DNA of 40,038 bases from Dehalococcoidales bacterium (GTDB lineage Bacteria > Chloroflexota > Dehalococcoidia > Dehalococcoidales > UBA3254), in NCBI GenBank assembly GCA_034429955.1, contig DAOUFH010000095.1, positions 1 to 40,038 of the forward strand, in the 5' to 3' direction. Made by a program: the position numbers and the translations under genes. Below, piece after piece: positions 3,249 through 21,308 of this stretch (its first letter is position 1; every line of letters begins with the position of its first letter). The notes below the pieces were generated by a model. That model saw only the letters and a list, made by a program, of their open reading frames with translations. It ran no database searches and was not told the origin of the DNA.

Positions 3249-4706
3249 TTATACGGCAGGTAATTTGATTTCGAAGAAAGTACCCCGACCTAGCTGACTG
3301 TTAACTGAGATATCCCCGCCGCTGGACTGTATTATACTGCGTATTATTGCAAGTCCCAGTCCGAAACCGACTGAGGTGCCCGGAGCCTTATAAAAGCGTT
3401 CAAAAATATGCGGTAGATGCTCCGGCGCAATTCCTGCCCCGTTATCCGCCACATTAATAACGACATATTCCGATTGACGGAAGGCACGTAGAGTGACAGT
3501 ACCTCCGGTAGTAGTATGCTTGAAAGCATTATCCAGCAATCCGGAGATCACACGAAGGAAATCAGAACGTTTGCCTTTAATCCTCAAATCAGGCTCAATA
3601 TCATAGTCAAAACGGATATTTTTAGCCTCAAATAGATAAGTGAATGACTCCTGTATTTCGACCAGTAAGACTGAGAGTTGCAGGGTCTCAGTGGTAGGCA
3701 GATGTTTAGTTTCATCCATCGCAGAAAGAAAGAGTAGTTCGTTAACAAGCTTTTCCATATAATTCACACGATCTGAGAGAAATGTCAGTAATTTTAGGTA
3801 GTCTTCGACAGAATGTTCGGCGGGCAGCATCTGACTGAGTGACGTTTTAACTGCTGCCAGCGGCGTTCTAAGCTCATGGGCTGCATCTGACACGAATCTT
3901 TTTTGCGAATTGAAAGATGCTTCCAGTCTATCGGCCATGGTATTAAAAGAACGCGCCAGTCGTCCTATTTCATCATTGGAATGTATTTCAATACGCTCCG
4001 ACAGGTTAGACTGGCTAAGTAGTTCAGTAGAACGGGTAACACGCCTCAAAGGCCTTACCGTCAGCCAGGTGATTAAAATACCAAAAGCTAGGGAGAAAAT
4101 GATGATAAGAGGAAGTCCGTAAGTTACGTCATAAATAACTTGTTTGGTCCAACCTGGAGATGGAATAGTATAACGGTCCAGAGATACTATATAAAGCAGA
4201 CCGGGATAACCTTCAACAGGCAGATAATACAAATCACTGGTACGGGTGCCGGATACATTCCCGAATGAGACCAGAGTATCAGGGAAATAGGATTCAGGCA
4301 AAGCTAACGGACCGATTTTAAAAGAATCGCCTGAACTCGAATATCTTCCTGTAAAAGTCACATTATAATAAACCTGATGATCTACGGTATAAGGTTCGCT
4401 GATAAAATGACTCCAGCCCACTCCTCCCTCAGTATAAATATCTATAAAAAGATTGAAACGCTCCAGACGATCATCAAAATCTGAAGCTCTTAAAGCATAA
4501 ACAGACCTGTCATCTTCTGTATTGATATATAAGTTGTTATCCGGATAGAGGTCGTCGATAAATCCCGGCCCGATTTCCGCCGTTCTCATGCATTGACTGA
4601 CTTCTCTTTTATAATCGTTATATTCAATATAAGCGATCATAGCTGTTACCAGAAACAGTATAGAAACAGAATATATCAGAGTTAATTTAACACTTAGACT
4701 ATTCAT
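3249..4706 (-). CDS. Sensor histidine kinase (2 TM, periplasmic domain, HAMP, HisKA, HATPase_c)
   Basis: 485-aa ORF. TM helices near residues 10-30 and 200-220. HAMP (NDEIGRLARSFNTMADRL). H-box SDAAHELRTPL. G-boxes DNGAGI and GFGLGLAI. Confidence 0.9.
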   Translation of the reverse strand: MNSLSVKLTLIYSVSILFLVTAMIAYIEYNDYKREVSQCMRTAEIGPGFIDDLYPDNNLYINTEDDRSVYALRASDFDDRLERFNLFIDIYTEGGVGWSHFISEPYTVDHQVYYNVTFTGRYSSSGDSFKIGPLALPESYFPDTLVSFGNVSGTRTSDLYYLPVEGYPGLLYIVSLDRYTIPSPGWTKQVIYDVTYGLPLIIIFSLAFGILITWLTVRPLRRVTRSTELLSQSNLSERIEIHSNDEIGRLARSFNTMADRLEASFNSQKRFVSDAAHELRTPLAAVKTSLSQMLPAEHSVEDYLKLLTFLSDRVNYMEKLVNELLFLSAMDETKHLPTTETLQLSVLLVEIQESFTYLFEAKNIRFDYDIEPDLRIKGKRSDFLRVISGLLDNAFKHTTTGGTVTLRAFRQSEYVVINVADNGAGIAPEHLPHIFERFYKAPGTSVGFGLGLAIIRSIIQSSGGDISVNSQLGRGTFFEIKLPAV

Positions 4707-5370
4707 CTTTGATAATATATCCCAGTCCTTTAACAGTCTTGATATAAGCTTCTTTATTCTGTGGACACAGTTTACGACGAATGCGGCTTATCAGAACTTC
4801 TATAACATTGGAGAATGCTGCATGTTCACAATCCCAGATATGCTCTTCCAGCATCTCACGGGTAACAATGCCGTTACGGTTGAGCATTAAGAACTCCAGT
4901 ACCGCGTATTCCTTAGAGGTTAAATCAACCGGACAGTCCTGAACCGTGAGCTTTTTACGGGCTGAATCCAAAACTAATCCACCCGTTTCAATAAGCGAAG
5001 AACCAGATCCACCGGTCCTCCTGAGCAAAGCCCTTAGACGGGCATAAAGCTCTGGATAGCTAAAAGGTTTAACCAGATAGTCGTCCGCCCCGCTATCCAA
5101 ACCCCGAACCTTATCATCTTCACGGTAACGAGCAGTCAACATCAGTACAGGAGTGGTTATCTTTTTGTGACGAATTTCTTGGCAGAGCGAGAAGCCGTCC
5201 AGGTCAGGCAGCATGATATCCAGAATAATTACGTCGAAAGGAAAGGCTTGCAGAATTTCAAGAGCCGTCCGGCCTTCCGCAGCCCAATCCACGGCATAAC
5301 CGCTTTCTTCCAATCCGGACTTAACGACTCTCGCCAGATACTCATCATCTTCCACCAGCAATATTCTCAT
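4699..5370 (-). CDS. OmpR/PhoB-family response regulator
   Basis: 223-aa ORF. MRILLVEDDE, acceptor motif VIILDIMLPDLDG, LMLTA, KPF, and a C-terminal winged-helix (LTSKEYAVLEFL...VKGLGY). Overlaps the kinase gene by 8 nt. Confidence 0.92.
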   Translation of the reverse strand: MRILLVEDDEYLARVVKSGLEESGYAVDWAAEGRTALEILQAFPFDVIILDIMLPDLDGFSLCQEIRHKKITTPVLMLTARYREDDKVRGLDSGADDYLVKPFSYPELYARLRALLRRTGGSGSSLIETGGLVLDSARKKLTVQDCPVDLTSKEYAVLEFLMLNRNGIVTREMLEEHIWDCEHAAFSNVIEVLISRIRRKLCPQNKEAYIKTVKGLGYIIKDE

Positions 5371-5555
5371 GGAAACTAATTATAACACTTCAAGCTGAAT
5401 GGAAGATGAACAGGTATAGAGGGCAGTTGACATAGGGATATGGTTAAATAAGCAGAGCCGAAAACAAGTCATGCCCGGCTAACCCCATTTATTAAGACTA
5501 ATCAAAAACACAAGAGGCCATTATATTTCAGACAAAGGGAGGCGGGTCAGCGGGA

Positions 5556-7715
5556 TCACTCAACCGGTGGACTCAACGATGGGTTCTTTTGCATTGAAAG
5601 CAAAATCCGCCGCCGGGCTTTATCGATTTCCAGAACGGTGACTTCAACCTTCTGCTGGACCTTAACAATGTCATTGGGATTTTTTACAAAGCGGTCGGCC
5701 ATTTTGCTGATATGCACCAGGCCGTCCTGATGAACTCCGATGTCCACAAAAGCGCCGAAGTTGGTGACATTGGTAACGATGCCCGGCAGCTTCATACCGG
5801 GTTTAAGCTGGTCGATATTATTGATACCAGCCGCGAAGCTGAATATTTCAAATTGAGCGCGGGGGTCGCGTCCCGGTTTGCCCAGTTCCTGTAAAATATC
5901 GCTTAATGTAGGCAGTCCCACCTTATCACTCAGGTATTTTTCCAGTACAATCTTTTGACGCAGTTCTTCATTCTGCATCAGGTCCTGCACTGTACAGGCC
6001 AGGTCGGCCGCCATCTTTTTAACCAGGTCATAATTCTCAGGATGAATGGCACTGGCATCCAGGGGATTTTTAGCGTTATAGATGCGCAGGAAACCGGCTG
6101 CCTGTTCAAAGGCCTTGGGGCCCAGGCGAGGCACCTTGCGCAATTCCTGGCGGGTTTTAAAAGGGCCGTTCTGGTCGCGGTATTCCAGAATATTCTTGCC
6201 CAGTGCGGGACCCAGTCCGGAAACATAGGCCAGTATCTGGCGGCTGGCGGTATTGACCTCCACGCCCACCCGGTTGACGCAATTCATTACCGTATCATCC
6301 AGACTCTGTTTAAGTTTGGATTGGTCGACATCATGCTGGTACTGTCCCACACCGATAGATTTAGGATCAATCTTAACCAGTTCAGCCAGAGGGTCCATCA
6401 GACGGCGTCCGATAGAAACCGCCCCGCGCACAGTGATATCATGATCGGGAAATTCCTCACGGGCCGCATCCGAAGCCGAATATATTGAGGCCCCGCTCTC
6501 GTTGACCTGTACTATAGCTATCGATTCCGGCAGGCCCAGGGCGCGGACGAAAGCCTCCGTTTCACGGCCGGCGGTGCCGTTGCCGATGGCAATAGCTTCG
6601 ATTTTGTACTTCTGTACCAGTTCAAGCAGGCTCTTTTTAGCTTCTGCCTCGAGTTTGGCCGACTGGGTAGGGAATATGGTGGTATTATGCAGCAGTTTGC
6701 CCTGGGGGTCGAGACAGACCACTTTACAGCCGGTACGGAAGCCGGGGTCGATTGCCAGCACCGTTTTTTGTCCCAGCGGCGGCGACATTAAAAGTTCCTG
6801 CAGATTGCGGGTAAAGACCCGGATGGCCTCAGCATCGGCACGTTCCTTAATCTCCTGACGGATATCAGTTTCCAGCGAAGGAGCCAGCAGCCTTTTATAA
6901 CTGTCTTCCAGAGCCAGTACCACCTGATCGGAGCAGGGATTTTGGGCTTTAACCATATGACGGAAAATGATTGAAAGGGCCTTGTCTTCCGGTGGCCGGA
7001 TTTCCAGTTTAAGGAACTCCTCAGTTTCACCCCGGAACAAGGCCAGCACCCGGTGGGCGGGCATTCTTAAAATCGCTTCGGATATCTCAAAATAATCGCG
7101 GTATTTGGCGCCTTCCTCTTCCTTACCCTTAACCACCCGTGACTGCAGCACTCCTTCGCGGGCAAAGAGCAACCGCAGGGACTGGCGCAAAGCGGCGTCT
7201 TCATTGATGATTTCGGCGATAATATCGCGGGCTCCCGCCAGAGCGTCTTCTACGGACTCAACCCCTTTTTCGGTGTTGATATAGGCGGCGGCAGCCTGAA
7301 GCGGATCTGTTTTATTATCCTGTAACAGAATCAAATCGGCCAGCGGAGCCAGGCCCTTTTCACGCGCGATAGTGGCGCGGGTGCGCCGTTTGGGCCGGTA
7401 AGGCAGATAAATATCTTCCAGTTCCGGCAGCGTTTGAGCTTCGTCGATAGCCTTCTGCAGCTCGGGTGTCAGCAAATCACGTTCTTCCAGTGATTTAATG
7501 ATAGCCTCACGGCGCTTGTCCATTTCAGCCAACTGAGCCAGGCGGTCACGCACATTGGCGATAACCACTTCATCCAGCGAGCCGGTCTGTTCCTTGCGGT
7601 AGCGGGCGATGAAAGGAACAGTAGAACCCTCTTGAAAAAGCTTATCTATAGCGGTGATCTGCCAGAGTTGCAGTCCCAGTTCCCGGGCTACGCTGGAGGT
7701 ATGTAAATCAGTCAT
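5556..7715 (-). CDS. tex: Tex-like transcription accessory protein (S1 RNA-binding domain at C-terminus)
   Basis: Tex N-terminal motif VPFIARYRKE, YqgF/RuvC-like and HhH regions, and C-terminal S1 domain GIVTNVTNFGAFVDIG. Start placed at the ATG at 7715 (MTDLHTSSVAREL). The 38 codons upstream in the ORF track look like read-through of the 5' region. Confidence 0.9.
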   Translation of the reverse strand: MTDLHTSSVARELGLQLWQITAIDKLFQEGSTVPFIARYRKEQTGSLDEVVIANVRDRLAQLAEMDKRREAIIKSLEERDLLTPELQKAIDEAQTLPELEDIYLPYRPKRRTRATIAREKGLAPLADLILLQDNKTDPLQAAAAYINTEKGVESVEDALAGARDIIAEIINEDAALRQSLRLLFAREGVLQSRVVKGKEEEGAKYRDYFEISEAILRMPAHRVLALFRGETEEFLKLEIRPPEDKALSIIFRHMVKAQNPCSDQVVLALEDSYKRLLAPSLETDIRQEIKERADAEAIRVFTRNLQELLMSPPLGQKTVLAIDPGFRTGCKVVCLDPQGKLLHNTTIFPTQSAKLEAEAKKSLLELVQKYKIEAIAIGNGTAGRETEAFVRALGLPESIAIVQVNESGASIYSASDAAREEFPDHDITVRGAVSIGRRLMDPLAELVKIDPKSIGVGQYQHDVDQSKLKQSLDDTVMNCVNRVGVEVNTASRQILAYVSGLGPALGKNILEYRDQNGPFKTRQELRKVPRLGPKAFEQAAGFLRIYNAKNPLDASAIHPENYDLVKKMAADLACTVQDLMQNEELRQKIVLEKYLSDKVGLPTLSDILQELGKPGRDPRAQFEIFSFAAGINNIDQLKPGMKLPGIVTNVTNFGAFVDIGVHQDGLVHISKMADRFVKNPNDIVKVQQKVEVTVLEIDKARRRILLSMQKNPSLSPPVE

Positions 7716-8004
7716 TATAAAATCTTCTCTCAGGTTGATATTTGCTTGGAGGCATAGAAGCCTGCCAACATTATACAACTTTGGGAGATTGAAAAAACGA
7801 GTAACAAAATGAACAGCCAAAGAAAACACTCACATGATATTTAAACCAGATCCGTTTGAAATATCTTTTAACTATTTAATTAACACTTTTCCTCCAGCTT
7901 TAAAACAAAATAACCAACAGTCTCCAACCAATAAACAAATTATTAAGCAAAAAGTTAAATCTGTGGATTAACTATTCGGATGTTTTTAATCATAAGTTAA
8001 CCGT

Positions 8005-8034
8005 TTGACTACCTATAGTTACAAAGAATACTAT
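8005..8034 (+). promoter_or_regulatory. Candidate sigma70-like promoter of the island operon (TTGACT - 18 nt - TACTAT)
   Basis: TTGACT at 8005-8010 and TACTAT at 8029-8034, about 30 nt upstream of the first possible start (TTG 8064). Pattern match only. Confidence 0.3.
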
Positions 8035-8063
8035 ATTTATAAATCAATCAGGACAACAAGAAT

Positions 8064-9401
8064 TTGGAAACACTAATTCAAAATCAGAATAGGGTTGCCG
8101 CGTTCTCCGTTTTTAACGAAGAAGTTGGTATGGTTTTAACTAAAGGACAATTGTCTGAATTTAGTTTAAAAAATAACGCGTATATACTTTCTTTACTAAA
8201 TGGAAAAGCATCCGAAGTTCTCCAAAAAACAGTATCTCTAAAGATAAGAAGAGAATCTGGTATATTTTTTACAAGCCACGAATTATCAAATAAATTGGCA
8301 TGGAAAATATCAAACTTATTATCCAAAGGAATAAAAGTGGTAGATCCAGCCTGTGGAGCCGGAGACCTGCTTTTAGCTTGTGCACAATATTTACCATTGG
8401 GTAAAAATTTGGGTGACACTATAAATAAATGGTCAGAATTAGTATCCGGGTTCGATTTGTATGATGAGTTTATTTTAGCCACCAAGTTAAGACTTATTTT
8501 ATTGGCAGCAGCCAGAAGTAAAGATAGTCAAAATATTGAAAACTATCTTTTAGAATCAAAGGTCTTTACTGGTTTGGTTAAAAAAGACTTTATATCTGAT
8601 AAAAACGATTTTCGTGAAATGGTATGTTTCGTCGTAAATCCACCATTCGGCGATATTGATGCTCCTAATGGATGTAAATGGGCAACAGGAAAAATTCAGA
8701 CCGCCGCCAGGTTCATGGAAAAACTGTTCATCGAATCTAATCCAGGTCAACAAATTTTGGCAATATTACCAGATGTTTTGCGTAGTGGTACAAGGTATTC
8801 AAAATGGAGAAAAGTTATTGGACAATTTTGTTCCAATTTAGAAATTGAGTCTGCTGGGCGCTTTGATGCGGGGACAGATGTAGATGTGTTTATACTTCAA
8901 GCCACTATGCGCTTTAAGAATGAGATTAACGTTACTTGGCCAGATAATAGTCCAATAATTAATTATAAATATTCAAGCACTGTTTCAGACTATTTTAATG
9001 TTTGTGTTGGGACAATTGTTCCCTATAGGGACCCTGATGAAGGTACAGAATTTCCGTACTTACATGCAAAAAATGCTGAAAAAGGGCAGATTATTAATAG
9101 TTTATCGGAAACAATTTTAACAAAACGAAAGTGTTTTCATCCACCATTTGTTGTAGTGCATCGTACTTCAAGCCCAAATGATACTCCACGATGTGTTACA
9201 AGCATTGTGAACATAAAAAATAATGTCGCTGTCGAAAATCACCTAATTATACTCAAACCAAAGAATAATCAATTGGAGTTATGCCATAGACTAGTGAAAA
9301 TATTAAATTCTTCAATTACAGATACTTTCTTAAACCAGCGTATCCGGTGTAGACATCTAACCGTAGCTTCCGTAAAAGAAATTCCGTGGGTTGAGGAATA
9401 A
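8064..9401 (+). CDS. Gamma-class N6-adenine DNA methyltransferase, M.TaqI/Eco57I-like, with C-terminal target-recognition domain
   Basis: Motif I VVDPACGAGDLLLA is followed by motif IV VVNPPFGD (order I then IV indicates gamma class). About 230 aa of C-terminal non-catalytic region. The start is uncertain: TTG at 8064 or ATG at 8130. Confidence 0.8.
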   Translation: METLIQNQNRVAAFSVFNEEVGMVLTKGQLSEFSLKNNAYILSLLNGKASEVLQKTVSLKIRRESGIFFTSHELSNKLAWKISNLLSKGIKVVDPACGAGDLLLACAQYLPLGKNLGDTINKWSELVSGFDLYDEFILATKLRLILLAAARSKDSQNIENYLLESKVFTGLVKKDFISDKNDFREMVCFVVNPPFGDIDAPNGCKWATGKIQTAARFMEKLFIESNPGQQILAILPDVLRSGTRYSKWRKVIGQFCSNLEIESAGRFDAGTDVDVFILQATMRFKNEINVTWPDNSPIINYKYSSTVSDYFNVCVGTIVPYRDPDEGTEFPYLHAKNAEKGQIINSLSETILTKRKCFHPPFVVVHRTSSPNDTPRCVTSIVNIKNNVAVENHLIILKPKNNQLELCHRLVKILNSSITDTFLNQRIRCRHLTVASVKEIPWVEE

Positions 9402-9404
9402 ATT

Positions 9405-11690
9405 ATGGATGATCGCAAATTAATCGAATCAACTCCTTTTTCAATTGATGCTCGTGTTGCAATCCAGCTAGGAAGAGAAAGTATTTCTAGTTCACTAGTC
9501 GCAGTATCCGAACTAGTTAAAAATTCCTATGATGCAGATGCTGAGGAAATAATAATTGAGTTTTTTGACCGCAATACTACATCACCAACAATAGTCATCG
9601 AAGATGATGGAAATGGAATGACTTTTGATACACTGAAGAACAACTGGTTACGAATAGGTACAGACAATAAATCCAAAACGGATAAATCCGAAGTAAAACA
9701 TCGTGTGCTTACTGGGTTAAAAGGTCTAGGTAGGTTGGGAATTGACAGGCTGTGTAAGAAATTGATACTTCAAACAATCACTGAAACATCAGACCAAGCT
9801 ATTGAACTCGAAATAGATTGGGGTAGTTTTGACCAGAGTGGAGGCATTGACCTTGCTTCTATTAAACATAATATCTACGAGATATCTCCCAAGTTTCATG
9901 ACAAATTCGGGACTTTCCCAACTAATAATAAGTCCAAAGGGACTCGATTAATATTATTAGGACTGAAAGATGAGTGGACTGAAGAGTTTATTACAGAACT
10001 AAAAAACGAACTATCCCGTTTGGTTTCACCGTTTGATAGTATAAAAGACTTTTCAGTCGTGCTAAAAACAGGTATCCCGAAGCTTGATGGCAAAGTAAAT
10101 TCAAAACAATATTTACGCGCTGCAGAAGCAACTCTCCACTCAATAATAGATAAAAACAATATGGTTTCACTTGAAATTGCATCTTCGGCCTATGGAAAAC
10201 GATTCAAACAACCACCCATTTTATGGAAAGATTGGCTTCCAGAAAGAACCTCTGTTCCTAAATGTGGACCTTTACGATTGGAAATGTACTATATTCCAGA
10301 TCGACCAGACAATGTATTACAGTCTCTTGATTTTAAGAAGCAAACTATTAAAGAATTTGTACGTAACAATCAAGGTATAAGAATTTACCGAGACCAATTT
10401 AGAGTGAAGCCCTATGGCGAACCTTCGGGAGAAGGAGACTGGTTAAACCTATCCTATCGTAGGGCAACGCAACCACAAGCAATTACACAGAAAGGATGGA
10501 GGGTCGGTTACCATCAGGTCATCGGTGCTGTATTTATCACTCGTGAATTTAATCCAGGCTTAAATGATCAAACTAATCGAGAAGGTTTAGTAGAAACAAC
10601 TCCTTTTTTTGATTTAAAAGCATTTGGACACAAATCGATTCAAATATTTGAACACTATTTACAGTTATGGGCGTCGGAAGAAAATGATAATAGTGAATCT
10701 GAAAAAGCTAAGGTTAAAACTAACTTAGCAATCTTAAATTCGGTTTCGGTAATTAATGACTTGAAACAAAAAGTCCAAGATCTTGAGATGACATCGGAAT
10801 CGGTTACCGAAAAAGGTAAACTACCCACCAAGGAATTATCCAAACAAATTGAACACGTCGAAAAAACTATAACAGAATCTATTAACTCTTTTAAAAATTA
10901 TGAAATAATTTTAGAAAATGCCCAAAAAGAACTACGACAAGAAAAAGATACCCTTTCAAATCTAGCCTCATTAGGCATATTAACTGTAAGTTTCGGACAC
11001 GAAACTAAAGGAGCCGCAAATTTAGCAGCTCAGAATTCATCAATGCTTAAAAATATTATTCAAAAAGGAAAACTCTTTTTAATGCCCGATGAAGAACAGC
11101 ATTTGTTTGAAAAAATTGACATCATAATAAGAAATATTGATTATGTAAACACCTTTGCTAACTTTGCATTAGCTAACGTTAAATGGGATAAAAGAAAACG
11201 AAGCTTAATTAGTATTGGGAAAATTTGTAAATATGTTATCGACAACTTCAAATTAATTTTTTCCAGTAAAAATATTGATGTTAACATAGATGAGATTGCT
11301 GAAAATATACCGTCTATAAAAGGATTTGCTATAGATTGGGAAAGCATTTTTGTTAATTTTATAACAAATTCAATTTGGGCACTTGAAGATATTCCAGCTG
11401 CAAATCGTAAAATTTGCATCTCAATTAAAAACAATGATGATAACATCAAGATAAATTTTGCTGATAGCGGGAAGGGTCTCGAAAAGGGGACTGAGAATAT
11501 GATATTTGCTCCGACGTTTTCAACAAAAAGGAATGAGAAAGGTGAGCAAATCGGAACAGGTATGGGTTTATCAATTATAAAAACATTTGTTGAAAATCAT
11601 GCTAAAGGAAGTATTATTGCGATTTCGCCTGGAAGGATAGGTGGAGCTGAATTCGTTATCACCATTCCCAATAGTAACGATGTGAGGTAA
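9405..11690 (+). CDS. Dual-GHKL protein: N-terminal MORC/Hsp90-like ATPase (HATPase_c_3-like) fused via coiled coil to a histidine-kinase core (DHp + CA)
   Basis: N-terminal module: ELVKNSYDA (N40), IEDDGNGM (D67xGxG), GLKGLGRLG. Residues about 430-520 are heptad-rich. DHp-like LGILTVSFGHETKG (His532, codon 10998-11000). CA domain: NFITNS, DSGKGL, IFAPTFSTK, GTGMGLS. No TM segment. GAGGAA RBS 6 nt before the ATG. Confidence 0.75.
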   Translation: MDDRKLIESTPFSIDARVAIQLGRESISSSLVAVSELVKNSYDADAEEIIIEFFDRNTTSPTIVIEDDGNGMTFDTLKNNWLRIGTDNKSKTDKSEVKHRVLTGLKGLGRLGIDRLCKKLILQTITETSDQAIELEIDWGSFDQSGGIDLASIKHNIYEISPKFHDKFGTFPTNNKSKGTRLILLGLKDEWTEEFITELKNELSRLVSPFDSIKDFSVVLKTGIPKLDGKVNSKQYLRAAEATLHSIIDKNNMVSLEIASSAYGKRFKQPPILWKDWLPERTSVPKCGPLRLEMYYIPDRPDNVLQSLDFKKQTIKEFVRNNQGIRIYRDQFRVKPYGEPSGEGDWLNLSYRRATQPQAITQKGWRVGYHQVIGAVFITREFNPGLNDQTNREGLVETTPFFDLKAFGHKSIQIFEHYLQLWASEENDNSESEKAKVKTNLAILNSVSVINDLKQKVQDLEMTSESVTEKGKLPTKELSKQIEHVEKTITESINSFKNYEIILENAQKELRQEKDTLSNLASLGILTVSFGHETKGAANLAAQNSSMLKNIIQKGKLFLMPDEEQHLFEKIDIIIRNIDYVNTFANFALANVKWDKRKRSLISIGKICKYVIDNFKLIFSSKNIDVNIDEIAENIPSIKGFAIDWESIFVNFITNSIWALEDIPAANRKICISIKNNDDNIKINFADSGKGLEKGTENMIFAPTFSTKRNEKGEQIGTGMGLSIIKTFVENHAKGSIIAISPGRIGGAEFVITIPNSNDVR

Positions 11691-11694
11691 TAAA

Positions 11695-12327
11695 ATGAGC
11701 CAAAACAAAATAGTATGGTTTATTGATGAAAACCCCGATGCACGGAAAACTTACGTCGAGATTTTACAGGGAATTTATTTACAGGATGTTACAGTATTAC
11801 CAGTTGAACCAAAACCCACCATCATTGAAATGAAGTATATTGTTGATAACCCTGATACTGCATCTATTGTTATTGATGAAAAATTGAAAGACACCGGTGT
11901 TGCTCTCTATTTTGGTATTCAACTTGCTGAATACTTCCGCTCGTTAAATGACAAAATTCCCATATATATATTAACGAGCTATTCAGGGGACTATGATTTA
12001 GAGAAGGGTAAATGGAGTGTGGAGTATATAATTGATAAAAATGAACTCACCAAGGATCTTAATACTATAAAGGCCAGATTGCAACGAAATATGTCAATCT
12101 ACTACGATTGTATAGACGAACGAGAACATAGATTCAACGAGTTGTTAAAAAAATCACTTGAACAAGCTATTACTAAAGAAGAAGCAACTGAGCTAGAAAA
12201 TTTGCAATACATACGCGCAAGAAATATTTTGGCAGATGAGCTCGGATCATCGGTTGTTTTAGAGGAAAAAGTCAAACAACAATTAGAATTGTTGGATAAA
12301 CTCGAAAAGGGAATCAAGCATGACTAA
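11695..12327 (+). CDS. Receiver (REC)-like domain protein with C-terminal coiled-coil, no recognisable output domain
   Basis: VWFIDENPD (D11/E12), ASIVIDEKL (D61, codon 11875-11877), IPIYILTSY (T94), YIIDK (K113) match the CheY-fold signature spacing. Residues about 125-210 are helical and charged. Starts 4 nt after the kinase stop, with a GAGG RBS. Confidence 0.55.
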   Translation: MSQNKIVWFIDENPDARKTYVEILQGIYLQDVTVLPVEPKPTIIEMKYIVDNPDTASIVIDEKLKDTGVALYFGIQLAEYFRSLNDKIPIYILTSYSGDYDLEKGKWSVEYIIDKNELTKDLNTIKARLQRNMSIYYDCIDEREHRFNELLKKSLEQAITKEEATELENLQYIRARNILADELGSSVVLEEKVKQQLELLDKLEKGIKHD

Positions 12328-12985
12328 TAATACAAAAATTTCTTATGATCATCTTTTTTATCCACAGCTTAAACGAAGACAGACATATTTGACGCATAAA
12401 AATAGTTCAAATTTCCAATATAATAGTTATAAGGAACAAATCGAGCAAGATTGCAAGCACAGGTGTGTGTATTGTGACATTACCTATTGTGAAATAGGTT
12501 TTGAAGGAATGGTGTTAGATCATTTCAGACCTCAACGACATTTCCCAGCACTATGTAATAATCCTTATAACTTAGTTCTTTCATGTCCAAAGTGTAATAG
12601 ACTTAAATCTGATTTATGGCCAGCCGGTGTAGATTGTCCTGAAACTTTCAAAGATAATTGCGGGTTTGTAGATCCATTTATAGAATCAATGCAGAGTTAT
12701 TTTTCTATAAAAACTGATGGTATGATTGAGCCGTTGAGACCACCAGCTACTTACCTTGAAAAAGTTCTCCATCTTAATCGATACGCACGGAAACAAGTAC
12801 GTTATTTAAGAATAATTACAAGCAGGATAGAACAATTTCGAAGTCAATTAGAACGAGAGTTCATCGAAAAATCTAATCAACATAATGAACAAAAAATAAC
12901 GGACGCTGATTTCATTTATTACATCAAGGAATACAGGCAAAAACTAGAACTAATGCGAAACCTCAACTCTAAAAACAAACAATGA
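12320..12985 (+). CDS. HNH (His-Me finger) endonuclease, PtuB/TIGR02646-like
   Basis: C49xxC52 ... D67-H68 ... N84 ... C89xxC92-N93 (CVYCD..LDHFRP..NLVLSCPKCNRLK). The ATG overlaps the upstream stop (ATGACTAA, 8-nt overlap). Confidence 0.8.
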   Translation: MTNNTKISYDHLFYPQLKRRQTYLTHKNSSNFQYNSYKEQIEQDCKHRCVYCDITYCEIGFEGMVLDHFRPQRHFPALCNNPYNLVLSCPKCNRLKSDLWPAGVDCPETFKDNCGFVDPFIESMQSYFSIKTDGMIEPLRPPATYLEKVLHLNRYARKQVRYLRIITSRIEQFRSQLEREFIEKSNQHNEQKITDADFIYYIKEYRQKLELMRNLNSKNKQ

Positions 12986-13050
12986 CTATTATTTGTAAAT
13001 ATACACTATGACTAATTTATCTATAGAATTTGAAATCGATTATCTCTCTA

Positions 13051-13314
13051 ATATTTATCAGTTAACGTTAAGCCCCTGCTCCTGATCGTATTCAGGGCAT
13101 AGGAATGCAGGGCGATGGGTGCCAGACCATTAAGGGCATTTTCAAGTTTGATATAGCTGGCTGAATCATAGGTTTTAGCTGTTTCCTCTGCAGCTTCATA
13201 CATATATCTGGTGAGAGCATAAACGGTATCTTCATCTATATCTTCAGTGGTATAAAGTGTGTCCCATTGAGAAACGGTATAGACCCTTTCAGACTGTCCC
13301 TTAAGTTGTAAAAG
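13051..13314 (-). pseudogene. 3' remnant of a solute-binding protein gene (possibly TAXI/TRAP-type), no start codon
   Basis: 88 open codons bounded by stops, at normal (non-island) GC. It translates to ..VYTVSQWDTLYTTEDIDEDTVYALTRYMYEAAEETAKTYDSASYIKLENALNGLAPIALHSYALNTIRSRGL... The LH-x2-A-x7-G spacing resembles the C-terminal PLHPGAxxYYKExG of TAXI receptors. No N-terminal part is present. Confidence 0.4.
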
Positions 13315-13319
13315 CTAAT

Positions 13320-13570
13320 TAAAAATACGAAATAACTTCGGAAAGAGCGGCAAGCTTCGGGAAAAGGTGAGTAACAAGAAGTTTTAGTTTCTAAGATTTA
13401 TCCCTGCCCTAGGATGCTTCGTTGCGCTCCAGAATGACACAATGGAGATAGGGAGAGTTTGGACTTTCAAGTTATAGGTGATAAGCTAGAAGTTTTAAGT
13501 TTAGGGAAAGGGTGAACTGTTAGCAGTCAGCTAGTCAGCTTGTAGCTTTGAGGAAGGGTCAATTTATACG
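13320..13570. repeat. Degenerate mosaic intergenic repeat, copy D
   Basis: Contains AAGGTGAGTAA (as at 27900), GTTTTAAGTT words (also at 1525 and 3210) and GTTAGCAGTCAGCTAGTCAGCT..TTTGAGGAAGGGT, which resembles the reverse complement of the hairpin module at 100-141. Confidence 0.45.
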
Positions 13571-13587
13571 TCTTGTGAGTCTTTTAA

Positions 13588-13943
13588 AAGCCAGGTAAAC
13601 CTGTAAGCCGAGTTCTGTGACCTGCCGCAGCAGGCCGGCGACCATCTATCTAGGCCGGCTGTTGCCAGACGGCTCATGCGGCCAACCCGAGGACGGGCCG
13701 GGCTTTCCCATTGTCCTTCTATTTGGCCTTGCTCCGGATGGGGTTTGCACGGCCGGACAGTTACCTGCCCGCCGGTGAGCTCTTACCTCGCCATTTCACC
13801 CTTACCTCAATAAAGAGGCGGTATGTTTCTGTTGCGCTGTCCGTAGGGTTGCCCCTCCCGGGTGTTACCCGGCATCCTGCCCGCGGAGCTCGGACTTTCC
13901 TCCCCGATCTTACAATCGCGGCGGTCGCCCGGTTTACCTGGCA
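13588..13943 (-). ncRNA. rnpB: RNase P RNA, bacterial type A
   Basis: The minus strand reads GGAGGAAAGTCCGAGCTCC (P4 5' strand, around 13876-13900) and ACAGAACTCGGCTTACAG (P4 3' strand, around 13598-13620). The P1 helix is CCAGGTAAACC / GGTTTACCTGG at the two ends. About 355 nt, GC-rich. The ORFs called over it are spurious. Confidence 0.92.
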
Positions 13944-14068
13944 CACAACATTATATCTTTTCTGGTTTCAAGTTGCGAGTTACAGACCGGAAATAAATTC
14001 AAAATAAAAGCAGATTATCCTTAAACCCGCTCCCGATGTAGAATGATACAGAGACAGGAGCAGACGGG

Positions 14069-14677
14069 ATGAAGAATACGCAGCATAAACAGGGCGTACA
14101 GGGACAGCCGGAGCGCATTTATCTGGCCGGGCCGGAGGTGTTTTTACAGAACGCCCGGGAAATCGGGGAACTTAAAAAGGCATTGTGCACCAAATACGGA
14201 TTCGAGGGCGTGTTCCCCCTGGACTCCGCCATAGATACTCACAATAAAAACAGGTATGCAACCGGTCTGTTGATCTCTGCCGCCAATGAAAAGCTGATCA
14301 AAAGCTGCCGGTACGTCATCGCCAATATCACGCCTTTCAGAGGACCCAGTGCCGATGCCGGCACGGTTTATGAGATCGGTTGCGCCAGAGGCTGCGGGCT
14401 GAAAATATTCGCTTACTCCAATACAAACTTATCCTATACAGAACGGGGCTGCCGCTTTTTTAAAACAGCCGATCAACTCGACGGCAGCGATCAGTTGAGA
14501 GACCCTCACGCAATGGCAATAGAGGATTATGCCATGGCCGACAACCTGATGATAGAGGGAGGGATCGTATCCAGCGGAGGCCGGCTGGTTCTGAACGATG
14601 TGCCAGTCAGCGAATTGTTCACCAGCCTGCAAGGTTGCGAACAATGCCTGCGGTACCTTCAAACCAGCCTGCAATAA
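14069..14677 (+). CDS. Nucleoside 2-deoxyribosyltransferase family protein
   Basis: IYLAGPEVF N-terminal motif and DAGTVYEIG motif typical of PF05014. AGGAG RBS 9 nt upstream. Confidence 0.75.
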   Translation: MKNTQHKQGVQGQPERIYLAGPEVFLQNAREIGELKKALCTKYGFEGVFPLDSAIDTHNKNRYATGLLISAANEKLIKSCRYVIANITPFRGPSADAGTVYEIGCARGCGLKIFAYSNTNLSYTERGCRFFKTADQLDGSDQLRDPHAMAIEDYAMADNLMIEGGIVSSGGRLVLNDVPVSELFTSLQGCEQCLRYLQTSLQ

Positions 14678-14689
14678 ACGGTTGCCCGG

Positions 14690-15091
14690 CTATTTTCTAT
14701 CCAGGGCCAGATTGGCCAGTTTATCGGCTTCGCGGTTCTGCTCACGGGGAATATTGCGGATTTGAAAAGCGGTGAAGCTGCCGGCCAGACGGCGGACTTC
14801 TTCATGTAGCGGTTTAAGCTCTTCTTTTTTGACCCGGTAGATTCCCAGCACCTGGCGCACCATCAATTCGGAATCACTGCGTACCAGTACCTCTTTAGCA
14901 CCCAGAGCTTTAGCCTTCTTCAAACCGGCTATAATCGCGCGGTATTCAGCCTGGTTATTGGTGGTCTCACCGATTTTCTCGGAGATTTCGGCCACCAGGA
15001 CATTTTTTTCATCCTTTAAAGTGACGCCGATAGCCGCCGAACCGGGATTACCGCGGGAGGCGCCATCGACATTTAAAATCAGTTTAGTCAA
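14690..15091 (-). CDS. rnhA: Ribonuclease HI
   Basis: LNVDGASRGNPG..AAIG, TNNQAEYRA, VRSDSELMVRQ, REQNREADKLAN are the RNase H catalytic D-E-D-D context. Start set at the TTG at 15091, preceded by GAAAGGA. The track ORF extends to 15202 through a Cys/hydrophobic stretch that looks non-coding. Confidence 0.8.
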   Translation of the reverse strand: MTKLILNVDGASRGNPGSAAIGVTLKDEKNVLVAEISEKIGETTNNQAEYRAIIAGLKKAKALGAKEVLVRSDSELMVRQVLGIYRVKKEELKPLHEEVRRLAGSFTAFQIRNIPREQNREADKLANLALDRK

Positions 15092-15304
15092 GCCAACAGT
15101 CCTTTCAATCTTTCTACAATCAAAGCAGGGGCCAACCTTACAAAAACAGACGAGCAGAACAAATACCCTGTTTACCCATTGTACAGGCAGGGTGAATGAC
15201 AAGCAACCGGCAAGAGATGCAAAGTCCGCACCGGCTGCCGGACTGAAGGTGATTCGAGTATAATCAATTGGTAAGGTGCTTGATTCGCCTTCAGGAGGGT
15301 TCAG

Positions 15305-21028: not shown

Positions 21029-21059
21029 CCATCTCCATTAGTCCTAATCCACGAGGTAT

Positions 21060-21230
21060 TTACCATCCGGCAGGTCTTCTGGCTTCCGGATCAGCCTACC
21101 GGCTGAGGCCTTCCCACTCCTTCAGGAGCAGTGACCGATCAACAGCTTTCGTACCCGGATACAGCGGCGGGACCGCACCCGATTTCGACGGGTTTCCCTA
21201 TTAAGTCCCTGTTACAGGACACCGGACCTC
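21060..21230 (-). promoter_or_regulatory. Cobalamin (B12) riboswitch aptamer
   Basis: The minus strand reads AATAGGGAAACCCGTCGAAATCGGGTGCGGTCCCGCCGCTGTAT ... GTCACTG (B12 box) ... GGGAAGGC ... AGCCAGAAGACCTGCCGG. This matches the conserved core of RF00174 in order and spacing. Confidence 0.85.
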
Positions 21231-21308
21231 TATTAAATTGTTAGAAATATTGTAGCAGGAGCAAATGAGGAGTTTCAAGTTGTAGAACGTTGATATAGAT
21301 AAGCGCGT

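Follow-up and report, generated by a model that had tools for sequence, protein, structure and literature searches.

What might a cell do with a protein that joins two Bergerat-fold ATPase modules in one chain, the first resembling the N-terminus of MORC proteins and the second the catalytic core of a histidine kinase? The question is raised by an open reading frame (ORF) at 9405..11690 on the plus strand of a 40,038-nucleotide stretch of contig DAOUFH010000095.1 from a Dehalococcoidales bacterium (GenBank assembly GCA_034429955.1; the whole stretch is called the window below). The ORF starts with ATG and encodes 761 residues, and an earlier reading of the DNA, the original prediction, had described the two modules and proposed that the MORC-like one acts as the sensor. 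The explanation that we consider best overall, and probable, is that the ORF encodes the AbrB-type kinase of a horizontally acquired Ambrosia-type anti-phage operon, in which a phosphorelay would lead from the kinase to an effector.

Resemblance of the operon to Ambrosia

Ambrosia is an anti-phage system of Pseudomonas aeruginosa, presented in a preprint of September 2025 (bioRxiv 10.1101/2025.09.30.679545), and it comprises AbrR (an XRE-family, HipB-like regulator), AbrA (an N6 methyltransferase), AbrB (a sensor kinase/HSP90-like ATPase), AbrC (a receiver, or REC, protein) and AbrD (an HNH nuclease). Point mutants in every one of these proteins abolish defence, including AbrB N40A, AbrC D60A and mutants of the HNH catalytic residues (10.1101/2025.09.30.679545). 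In the window, the kinase gene is the second of four genes on the same strand, which encode an N6-adenine methyltransferase, the kinase, a receiver protein and an HNH nuclease. These genes are separated by gaps of 3-4 nucleotides or overlap by 8, the methyltransferase gene ending 3 nucleotides upstream of the kinase gene, and it is the three neighbours that define what the kinase is for.

Compared with the sequences in Table S1 of the preprint, the methyltransferase is 36% identical to AbrA (E 1e-63), the kinase is 50.5% identical to the first 400 residues of the AbrB representative (E 2e-135), the receiver is 40% identical to AbrC (E 6e-45) and the nuclease is 43% identical to AbrD (E 2e-56). 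The four orthologues are thus co-linear, in the same order of methyltransferase, kinase, REC protein and HNH nuclease, and AbrB in Table S1 also has the pair of HATPase_c_3 and HATPase_c domains. All the residues at which a mutation abolished defence in P. aeruginosa are kept as well: N40 of the kinase corresponds to N40 of AbrB, P53 and D61 of the receiver to P52 and D60 of AbrC, and H68 and K91 of the nuclease to H60 and K83 of AbrD. The window kinase scores 672 bits in phmmer, albeit on a different profile from the one for which the preprint sets an AbrB threshold of 500 bits, and the detection thresholds of the preprint use AbrA-D only (10.1101/2025.09.30.679545). One further relative (P0088), which shares 44% identity with the window kinase across 99% of the length, is identical to the AbrB representative in its first 400 residues.

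Judged by these sequence comparisons, the window operon is of the Ambrosia type and the ORF at 9405-11690 is its AbrB. Protection against phage, which has been shown for the P. aeruginosa system only, may by analogy be expected of the window operon too. Since the architecture (2021) and the exact gene set (2025) had both been published, the window operon adds another example to a system already known, and the "unusual signalling logic" of the original prediction loses its novelty: the architecture and the sensor proposal appeared in 2021 (PMC8011034) and the gene set was validated in the Ambrosia preprint.

Architecture of the kinase

Pfam finds HATPase_c_3 (PF13589) at residues 30-159 of the kinase (E 3.5e-22; 79 bits versus a cut-off of 25) and HATPase_c (PF02518) at residues 646-756 (E 9.6e-18; 65 bits versus a cut-off of 26.4), both matches lying far beyond chance. 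The N-terminal module has the motifs ELVKNSYDA (residues 36-44), EDDGNGM (66-72) and GLKGLGRLG (104-112), the middle region has GIRIYRD...WLNL (324-349), SFGHETKG (529-536) contains His532, and the C-terminal module has NFITNS (651-656), DSGKGL (687-692), FAPTFSTK (701-708) and GTGMGL (717-722). Thus the ORF with its 761 residues and two Bergerat-fold ATPase modules is borne out by Pfam, motifs and Foldseek alike, and all the kinase motifs that the original prediction quoted sit at the residues it gave. It was also right in expecting a soluble protein devoid of the usual sensors: no PAS, GAF, HAMP or other sensor domain is found in the kinase by Pfam at E up to 10, and no transmembrane helix is detected, the top 19-residue average on the Kyte-Doolittle scale being 1.29.

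From its N-terminus the protein starts with a MORC-like GHKL (HATPase_c_3) ATP-binding domain (residues 1-190; 9405..9974, plus strand, as for all parts of the gene) with E36, N40, D67xGxG71 and G104xKGxGR110. A beta-rich, transducer-like middle domain follows (residues 191-398; 9975..10598), delimited by the structural model and Foldseek and containing GIRIYRDxFRVxPYG and DQTNREG motifs as well as an invariant R392. Next comes a long coiled-coil stalk (residues 399-510; 10599..10934), which is helical in the model and gapped and variable in an alignment of 25 homologues, and then a DHp helical hairpin (residues 511-590; 10935..11174) with His532 in FGHE (codon 10998-11000). The CA domain (HATPase_c; residues 600-756; 11202..11672) carries N651 and N655 in its N box, D687xGxG691 in G1, F701 in the F box and G717xGxG721 in G2. 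Two residues had been proposed for mutating the CA module, N651 and D686. The former is indeed invariant, but so is N655, and in histidine kinases the second Asn of the N box, here N655, is the likelier Mg-ATP ligand; residue 686 is an Ala, the Asp of the G1 box being D687.

The AlphaFold2 model of the kinase, built on the 25 homologues (mean predicted local distance difference test, pLDDT, 77), has the GHKL domain at about residues 1-190, the beta-rich middle domain at about 200-395, helices at 399-428, 431-464 and 475-553, the last of which contains His532, a return helix at 561-590 and the alpha/beta CA domain at 600-755. In this model about 130 helical residues separate the middle domain from His532, rather than the roughly 90 that had been given for the linker. 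The comparison with known structures that the prediction suggested was carried out on this monomer model by a Foldseek search of the PDB. The N-terminal ~450 residues match SMCHD1 (6mw7, 2e-10), MORC2 in complex with DNA (9cdh/9cdj), MORC3 (6o1e) and GRP94; E-values for SMCHD1, MORC2 and MORC3 range from 2e-10 to 1e-9, and the alignments, GRP94 included, cover 447-488 columns, i.e. the GHKL and middle domains. The C-terminal part matches ZraS (9jfj, 5e-11), CpxA, HK853 and FixL chimeras over about 245 columns. As far as a predicted model can tell, the description of a MORC-like N-terminus joined to a canonical kinase core is therefore structurally sound. Within the middle domain, R329 and R392 are, by their conservation (at least 90% and invariant, respectively), candidates for basic residues supplied to the ATP site.

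Matches to restriction enzymes raise the possibility of a very different protein. The NCBIfam model restrict_BbrUII (NF050001) aligns with residues 12-220 (5e-23), and the REase_II models of PADLOC match the N-terminal domain in 47 of 56 relatives, as would be expected if the ORF encoded a BbrUII/HgiDII-type enzyme, the nuclease of a classical type II restriction-modification (R-M) system together with the upstream methyltransferase. However, only the GHKL domain is shared (81.5 bits versus a cut-off of 550, at model positions 3-198 of 659), the remainder of the protein is a histidine-kinase core, and the nuclease of the operon is encoded by the separate HNH gene, so that we regard the chance of this explanation as close to nil. 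PADLOC has no dedicated model for the system, REase_II matching the N-terminal domain only and PDC-M43B the CA domain only (7.6e-6).

Conservation and spread of the kinase family

Among 79 relatives of the kinase, reaching down to 24% identity, D67, G69, G71, G104, K106, G107, G109, R110 and R392 are invariant in the N-terminal half, and H532, N651, N655, G689, G717, G719 and G721 in the C-terminal half. E36, N40, D687, G691 and R329 are conserved in at least 90% of relatives (in the 79-sequence set and its 56-sequence subset), with E36 and N40 invariant in the latter, and F701 is invariant among the 25 close homologues. We looked for homologues that lack His532 and for ones in which the N-terminal ATP-binding residues are lost; instead, the histidine is present in all 79 sequences and the ATP-binding residues are invariant or at least 90% kept. 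The DHp-like helix carrying His532, as predicted from the sequence, is thus upheld both by this invariance and by the matching DHp and CA folds.

One may nevertheless consider that the C-terminal part does no more than bind a second nucleotide or mediate dimerisation in a MORC-like ATPase, the receiver being a structural partner and no phosphotransfer taking place between them, given that the Pfam HisKA model falls below threshold for the window kinase. Among the 56 relatives this model matches 2. Against such a reading, the NCBIfam kinase models AtoS and PRK09303 align from residues 481-506 to 756 and so span the H-box, a sequence search of the PDB finds ZraS (9e-7) and a VicK-like kinase (1e-6) as well as CpxA and HK853, and DHp and CA structures match. 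Moreover, His532, the N, G1 and G2 boxes and Asp61, Thr94 and Lys115 of the receiver vary little or not at all even among very divergent relatives, and the D60A mutation of AbrC abolishes defence. An ATPase that does not signal by phosphotransfer is accordingly very unlikely.

The family itself is large. Both GHKL domains are present in all of 56 diverse relatives according to Pfam, a large protein database holds thousands of full-length relatives, and a filter-free search of 1.84 billion cluster representatives (clusters at 50% identity) gave 1,137 matches at E <= 1e-30. When one genome per species was scanned, at least 592 species had a full-length relative. PF13589 and PF02518 are carried together by 120 of the 120 best matches, which are named "sensor histidine kinase" or "ATP-binding protein". 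The window kinase is therefore a member of a family and no one-off fusion. This family appears to cross the boundary between domains of life, because the metagenome-assembled genome of a thaumarchaeon, Nitrosopumilus sp. (OZ252092.1), carries a full-length relative of 29% identity, followed there by genes of 193 and 199 residues. On a 15.8-kb contig (P0001, P0122) the kinase is called at 543 residues, 100% identical to residues 220-761, and the receiver at 124 residues, 97% identical with 58% of the query covered; these short calls are due either to another choice of start or to genes that are disrupted in a close relative.

The operon and its genomic setting

Among 80 related loci, 33 share the order of kinase, receiver of about 210 residues and HNH protein of about 200 residues, and they come from at least eight phyla; about 29 of these 33 also have, upstream or a short way downstream, a gene with the motifs of an N6-methyltransferase (motif I, with NPP[YF] invariant). 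The hosts of the four-gene core include Burkholderiales, Candidatus Kuenenia, Akkermansiaceae, Gemmatimonadaceae, Paceibacterota, Lachnospiraceae and Christensenellaceae. An ORF with an HTH_3 domain lies within 900 nucleotides in only 3 of the 33 loci; since the XRE regulator is missing from the other 30 and from the window, the conserved core consists of the four genes. An Ambrosia-like operon is also found on a Klebsiella variicola plasmid of 303 kb (NZ_CP063918.1, locus 3700-8569). Its kinase, 44% identical to that of the window, is annotated as three coding sequences and is probably disrupted by frameshifts, and a helix-turn-helix (HTH) regulator lies downstream on the opposite strand.

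In the window, the operon occupies a low-GC island at 7750..13550, between tex (5556-7829, minus strand) and the gene of class A RNase P RNA (Rfam RF00010; 13588-13940, minus strand; full length, 299 bits), which stands at the high-GC edge of the island. GC content, 0.53-0.57 up to about position 7700, is 0.26-0.40 from there to about 13500 and 0.54-0.63 beyond; by gene, it is 0.345 for the operon, 0.521 for tex and 0.524 for the deoxyribosyltransferase gene. The low GC of the operon between flanks of about 52% points to horizontal acquisition. No direct repeats or attachment-site repeats were found flanking the island. Database names such as "sensor histidine kinase" would suit an ordinary housekeeping two-component kinase that happens to stand beside R-M genes, but the low-GC island, the linkage of four genes across phyla, the plasmid copies and the fact that the orthologous operon of P. 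aeruginosa is a validated anti-phage system all speak against such a coincidence, which we hold to be extremely unlikely.

The first gene of the operon encodes the AbrA-like N6-adenine DNA methyltransferase (8064..9401, plus strand; 445 residues from the TTG at 8064), identified by Pfam (N6_Mtase 8e-5 and a weak TaqI_C match), PADLOC (MTase_II 1e-11) and its identity to AbrA. It has motif I, DPACGAGDLL, and NPPF, and NPP[YF] is kept in 30 flanking genes of related loci. Translation may start at TTG 8064 or at the in-frame ATG 8130 (residue 23), the similarity to AbrA beginning at residue 62, and a promoter-like site at 8005..8034 on the plus strand (TTGACT-16/18-AATACT/TACTAT, 9/12 matches) fits both starts. 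Sites of this kind are not enriched over shuffled sequences, so that this one is a weak candidate. Upstream of the operon we saw only the short, low-identity repeats expected in AT-rich DNA and no operator-like ones.

The last gene encodes the AbrD-like HNH nuclease of 221 residues (12320..12985, plus strand), overlaps the receiver gene by 8 nucleotides and contains H68 (codon 12521-12523) and K91; it matches Pfam HNH (4e-5), PADLOC PtuB (2e-16) and the NCBIfam model of retron-type HNH proteins, TIGR02646 (5e-8). Farther away in the window, a gene at 14690-15202 (minus strand), after that of the deoxyribosyltransferase, has RNase_H and RVT_3 Pfam matches in the annotation of an identical metagenome contig, and a cobalamin riboswitch (RF00174, 109 bits) at 21052-21241 (minus strand) presumably controls downstream genes on the minus strand.

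The receiver and a proposed route to the effector

The gene that follows the kinase (11695..12327, plus strand) encodes an AbrC-like protein of 210 residues, with D11/E12, D61 (codon 11875-11877), T94 and K115 in a REC core and three long C-terminal helices. On its own it matches Response_reg weakly (Pfam E 0.089), but D61 is invariant across 40 such short downstream partners, 22 of which match this domain (PF00072), as do 18 of 34 long partners, and D11, T94 and K115 are invariant among closer homologues. The AlphaFold model (pLDDT 76) resembles the stand-alone REC proteins TrrA, Spo0F and QseB at about 3 A and template-modelling (TM) scores of 0.7-0.8. The small downstream partner of the kinase is thus a receiver. 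A eukaryotic transcriptome entry (P0137, eukprot) also contains an AbrC-like receiver, 35% identical, most likely as bacterial contamination.

How, then, would infection be translated into nuclease activity? We propose that the MORC-like module (GHKL and transducer-like domains) is the input, which would bind ATP and dimerise or clamp on an infection-derived ligand, most plausibly DNA. The original prediction made it the sole candidate input, and this holds in so far as no other input domain is seen; that it does act as the input is plausible, because this is consistent with the loss of defence in AbrB N40A, the need for N40 having been shown in the P. aeruginosa orthologue only. The change would then travel down the stalk to the DHp hairpin, where the CA domain would phosphorylate His532, as its invariant motifs and fold suggest, and the phosphoryl group would pass from His532 to Asp61 of the adjacent receiver, the equivalent of the essential D60 in the orthologue. 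Finally, the phosphorylated receiver would turn on the methyltransferase and HNH arm of the system.

For this final step we favour, at about an even chance, direct licensing of the PtuB-like HNH protein at the protein level, through the helical C-terminal extension of the receiver. We do so because the receiver has no detected DNA-binding domain and ends in three long helices without a wing (122-156, 161-182 and 188-208 in the model, after the REC core), because the XRE regulator is absent from the window and from 30 of 33 related loci, because distant REC domains are fused to other C-terminal domains in loci that have no HNH gene, and because the HNH protein belongs to the PtuB/retron class, whose nucleases act together with a partner ATPase in one complex. 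A combination of direct and transcriptional control, or some other mechanism, has a small share of the probability.

The fusions in distant relatives, which hint at a receiver that acts directly on an effector, since REC is joined there to other C-terminal domains, often where the HNH gene is lacking, are of two types. In the first (L025, L028, L029, L032, L039, L051, L062, L067 and others) the kinase is followed by a REC fusion of about 360-410 residues, whose C-terminal domain has the motifs GD...TPSCD...K...SLDSPFAE...GRxGxPDLD and no annotated function, often with neither an HNH nor a methyltransferase gene nearby; such a pair may be a two-gene REC-effector defence system. The second type (L020, L036, L040, L055, L059, L063, L066, L069, L076), of about 340-390 residues, has the motifs RLGVS..S.DW...Y.G.FS...RWW and a Cys-rich tail, and is usually followed by a gene of about 235 and one of about 620 residues. 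A PDB profile search with these C-terminal domains finds nothing beyond REC, and PADLOC gives only weak PDC-M60B/C matches.

Several points weigh against the proposed mechanism. Reporters put in place of abrA or abrD show hardly any expression before infection and are then induced, and AbrC is annotated with a winged helix (10.1101/2025.09.30.679545), which favours transcriptional control, at least in P. aeruginosa. The receiver may contain a helical DNA-binding module, its best full-length Foldseek matches being the DNA-binding regulators StyR and RcsB (root-mean-square deviation 12-17 A), and the C-terminal third of its model is of low confidence (pLDDT 46-63). AbrR, reported to be required for Ambrosia defence (10.1101/2025.09.30.679545), is absent from the window. 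Phage propagated in a host with AbrA only stayed sensitive (10.1101/2025.09.30.679545), so that simple methylation self-marking is not the principle of discrimination. The models of kinase and receiver are monomeric (predicted TM score of the kinase 0.51) and uninformative on clamping, and autophosphorylation, phosphotransfer and ligand binding are inferred in all members of the family.

The first of these points are what one would expect if output were transcriptional only, i.e. if AbrC were a DNA-binding response regulator that switches on the methyltransferase and HNH genes, the nuclease needing no further licensing; the name of FixJ-family regulator that the JGI gives to one receiver homologue fits as well. 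Yet the window receiver shows no HTH or other DNA-binding domain, be it in Pfam (E up to 10) or in a profile search of the PDB, everything after its REC core is helical, in helices of 21-35 residues with no wing, and the DNA upstream of the operon has no conspicuous operator-like repeats. Induction in P. aeruginosa, for which the text of the preprint does not report dependence on AbrC (10.1101/2025.09.30.679545), could stem from AbrR, which the window and most relatives lack. We therefore consider purely transcriptional output a serious possibility that falls short of an even chance.

Direct licensing can also be drawn in a more specific form, which we put forward tentatively and think somewhat unlikely as a whole: the MORC-like clamp would respond to some feature of the DNA that comes in (structure, ends, state of replication, or whether it bears the AbrA m6A mark) and fire the kinase, the C-terminal helical hairpin of the phosphorylated receiver would license the HNH protein directly, and the four-gene form without the XRE regulator, which the window shares with most phyla, would be the ancestral core.

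What the locus offers

The window locus is a clean and intact example of an Ambrosia-type system, from a different host background and without the XRE regulator. If a DNA-reading clamp and direct licensing were true of it, the operon would be an R-M-like machine whose "reader" signals to its "cutter" through a His-Asp phosphorelay, and no histidine kinase before this one would have had a GHKL DNA clamp for its input. A phosphorylation read-out of MORC-module activation would be useful beyond phage defence, since the bacterial relatives of MORC proteins are the presumed ancestors of the eukaryotic MORC silencers. Starting points for such work are provided by the comparison itself, namely the core found in at least eight phyla, the homology to HEF_HK kinases described below, the receiver without a visible winged helix and the REC-effector fusions.

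Comparison with known systems

Two candidates from the defence literature were set aside. The window methyltransferase matches mad2 models of MADS weakly, but the only "histidine kinase" of the MADS paper is a hotspot boundary gene and the gene set differs; in VcSduA, a Shedu protein with a GHKL N-terminus, the nuclease is fused to the GHKL domain, which is a different architecture. The DefensePredictor paper mentions HATPase and REC in a figure legend only and is uninformative here. As for Detocs, the system attributed to Rousset et al. 2023, its histidine kinase is said to sense phage infection and to control an effector by a phosphorelay to a receiver; reportedly, the sensor is of the TPR type and the receiver is fused to a nucleosidase that depletes ATP, with neither a methyltransferase nor an HNH protein. 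The principle would thus be the same, whereas sensor and effector would differ. PADLOC models of Detocs give no match to the window proteins at E up to 0.1 among the matches listed, which in the case of the HNH protein were the best 25 of 63.

With class I histidine kinases (ZraS, CpxA, HK853, AtoS and NtrB-like proteins) the window kinase shares the DHp hairpin with its His-Glu pair, the N, G1, F and G2 boxes of the CA domain and a cognate receiver encoded by the next gene. In contrast to them, its input is a second Bergerat-fold ATPase rather than a periplasmic, PAS, GAF or HAMP domain, it has no membrane anchor, and HisKA stays below threshold. With MORC, paraMORC and SMCHD1 proteins (Iyer, Abhiman and Aravind 2008, as cited in PMC8011034) it has in common GHKL motifs I-III, a catalytic-type Glu36, Asn40, the transducer-like domain and the link to R-M genes. 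It differs from MORC proteins and SMCHD1 in having no CW, PHD or chromatin-reader domain and in ending with the core of a histidine kinase; by analogy with these proteins, its MORC-like module may dimerise on ATP and clamp DNA.

A combination of the two halves was described by Bellieny-Rabelo et al. 2021, who found soluble proteins with HATPase_c_3, HEF_HK and HATPase_c domains adjoining Response_reg_2 and R-M genes, derived them from paraMORCs and proposed HATPase_c_3 as the sensor (PMC8011034). The likeness to the window is close: HATPase_c_3, a middle region, a DHp histidine and HATPase_c in a soluble protein, with a receiver-like gene next to it and methyltransferase and nuclease genes adjoining. 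The Pantoea dispersa HEF_HK kinase is homologous to the window family over its full length (hhalign probability 99.9%, E 5e-34, 697 columns). However, HEF_HK (PF19191) was found neither in the window kinase at E up to 10 nor in 56 relatives (Pantoea dispersa control 7e-6), and Response_reg_2 (PF19192) was found in none of the 40 short and 34 long downstream partners (Pantoea control 4e-19). Typical loci of the HEF_HK branch also have a methyltransferase of the C5 type, nucleases of the Vsr or HNH_2 kind and a receiver protein of far greater size. The Pantoea dispersa locus, at 4784-10852 of plasmid NZ_CP106661.1, encodes a C5 cytosine methyltransferase, a kinase of 989 residues and a Response_reg_2 protein of 629 residues whose large C-terminal part is unannotated, with no separate nuclease gene adjacent. 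The window family and the HEF_HK family are distinct, as sister branches of one superfamily.

From Ambrosia, finally, the window operon differs in three respects. It has no AbrR, and there is no HTH-like ORF at 7750-8350 or 12900-14100; the winged helix annotated in AbrC is not seen in the model of its orthologue here; and the distribution is wider. Ambrosia was reported only in Gammaproteobacteria, with 537 instances and validation in one P. aeruginosa strain (10.1101/2025.09.30.679545), whereas the core as seen from the window extends to Bacteroidota, Planctomycetota, Verrucomicrobiota, Gemmatimonadota, Patescibacteria, Firmicutes and Alphaproteobacteria.

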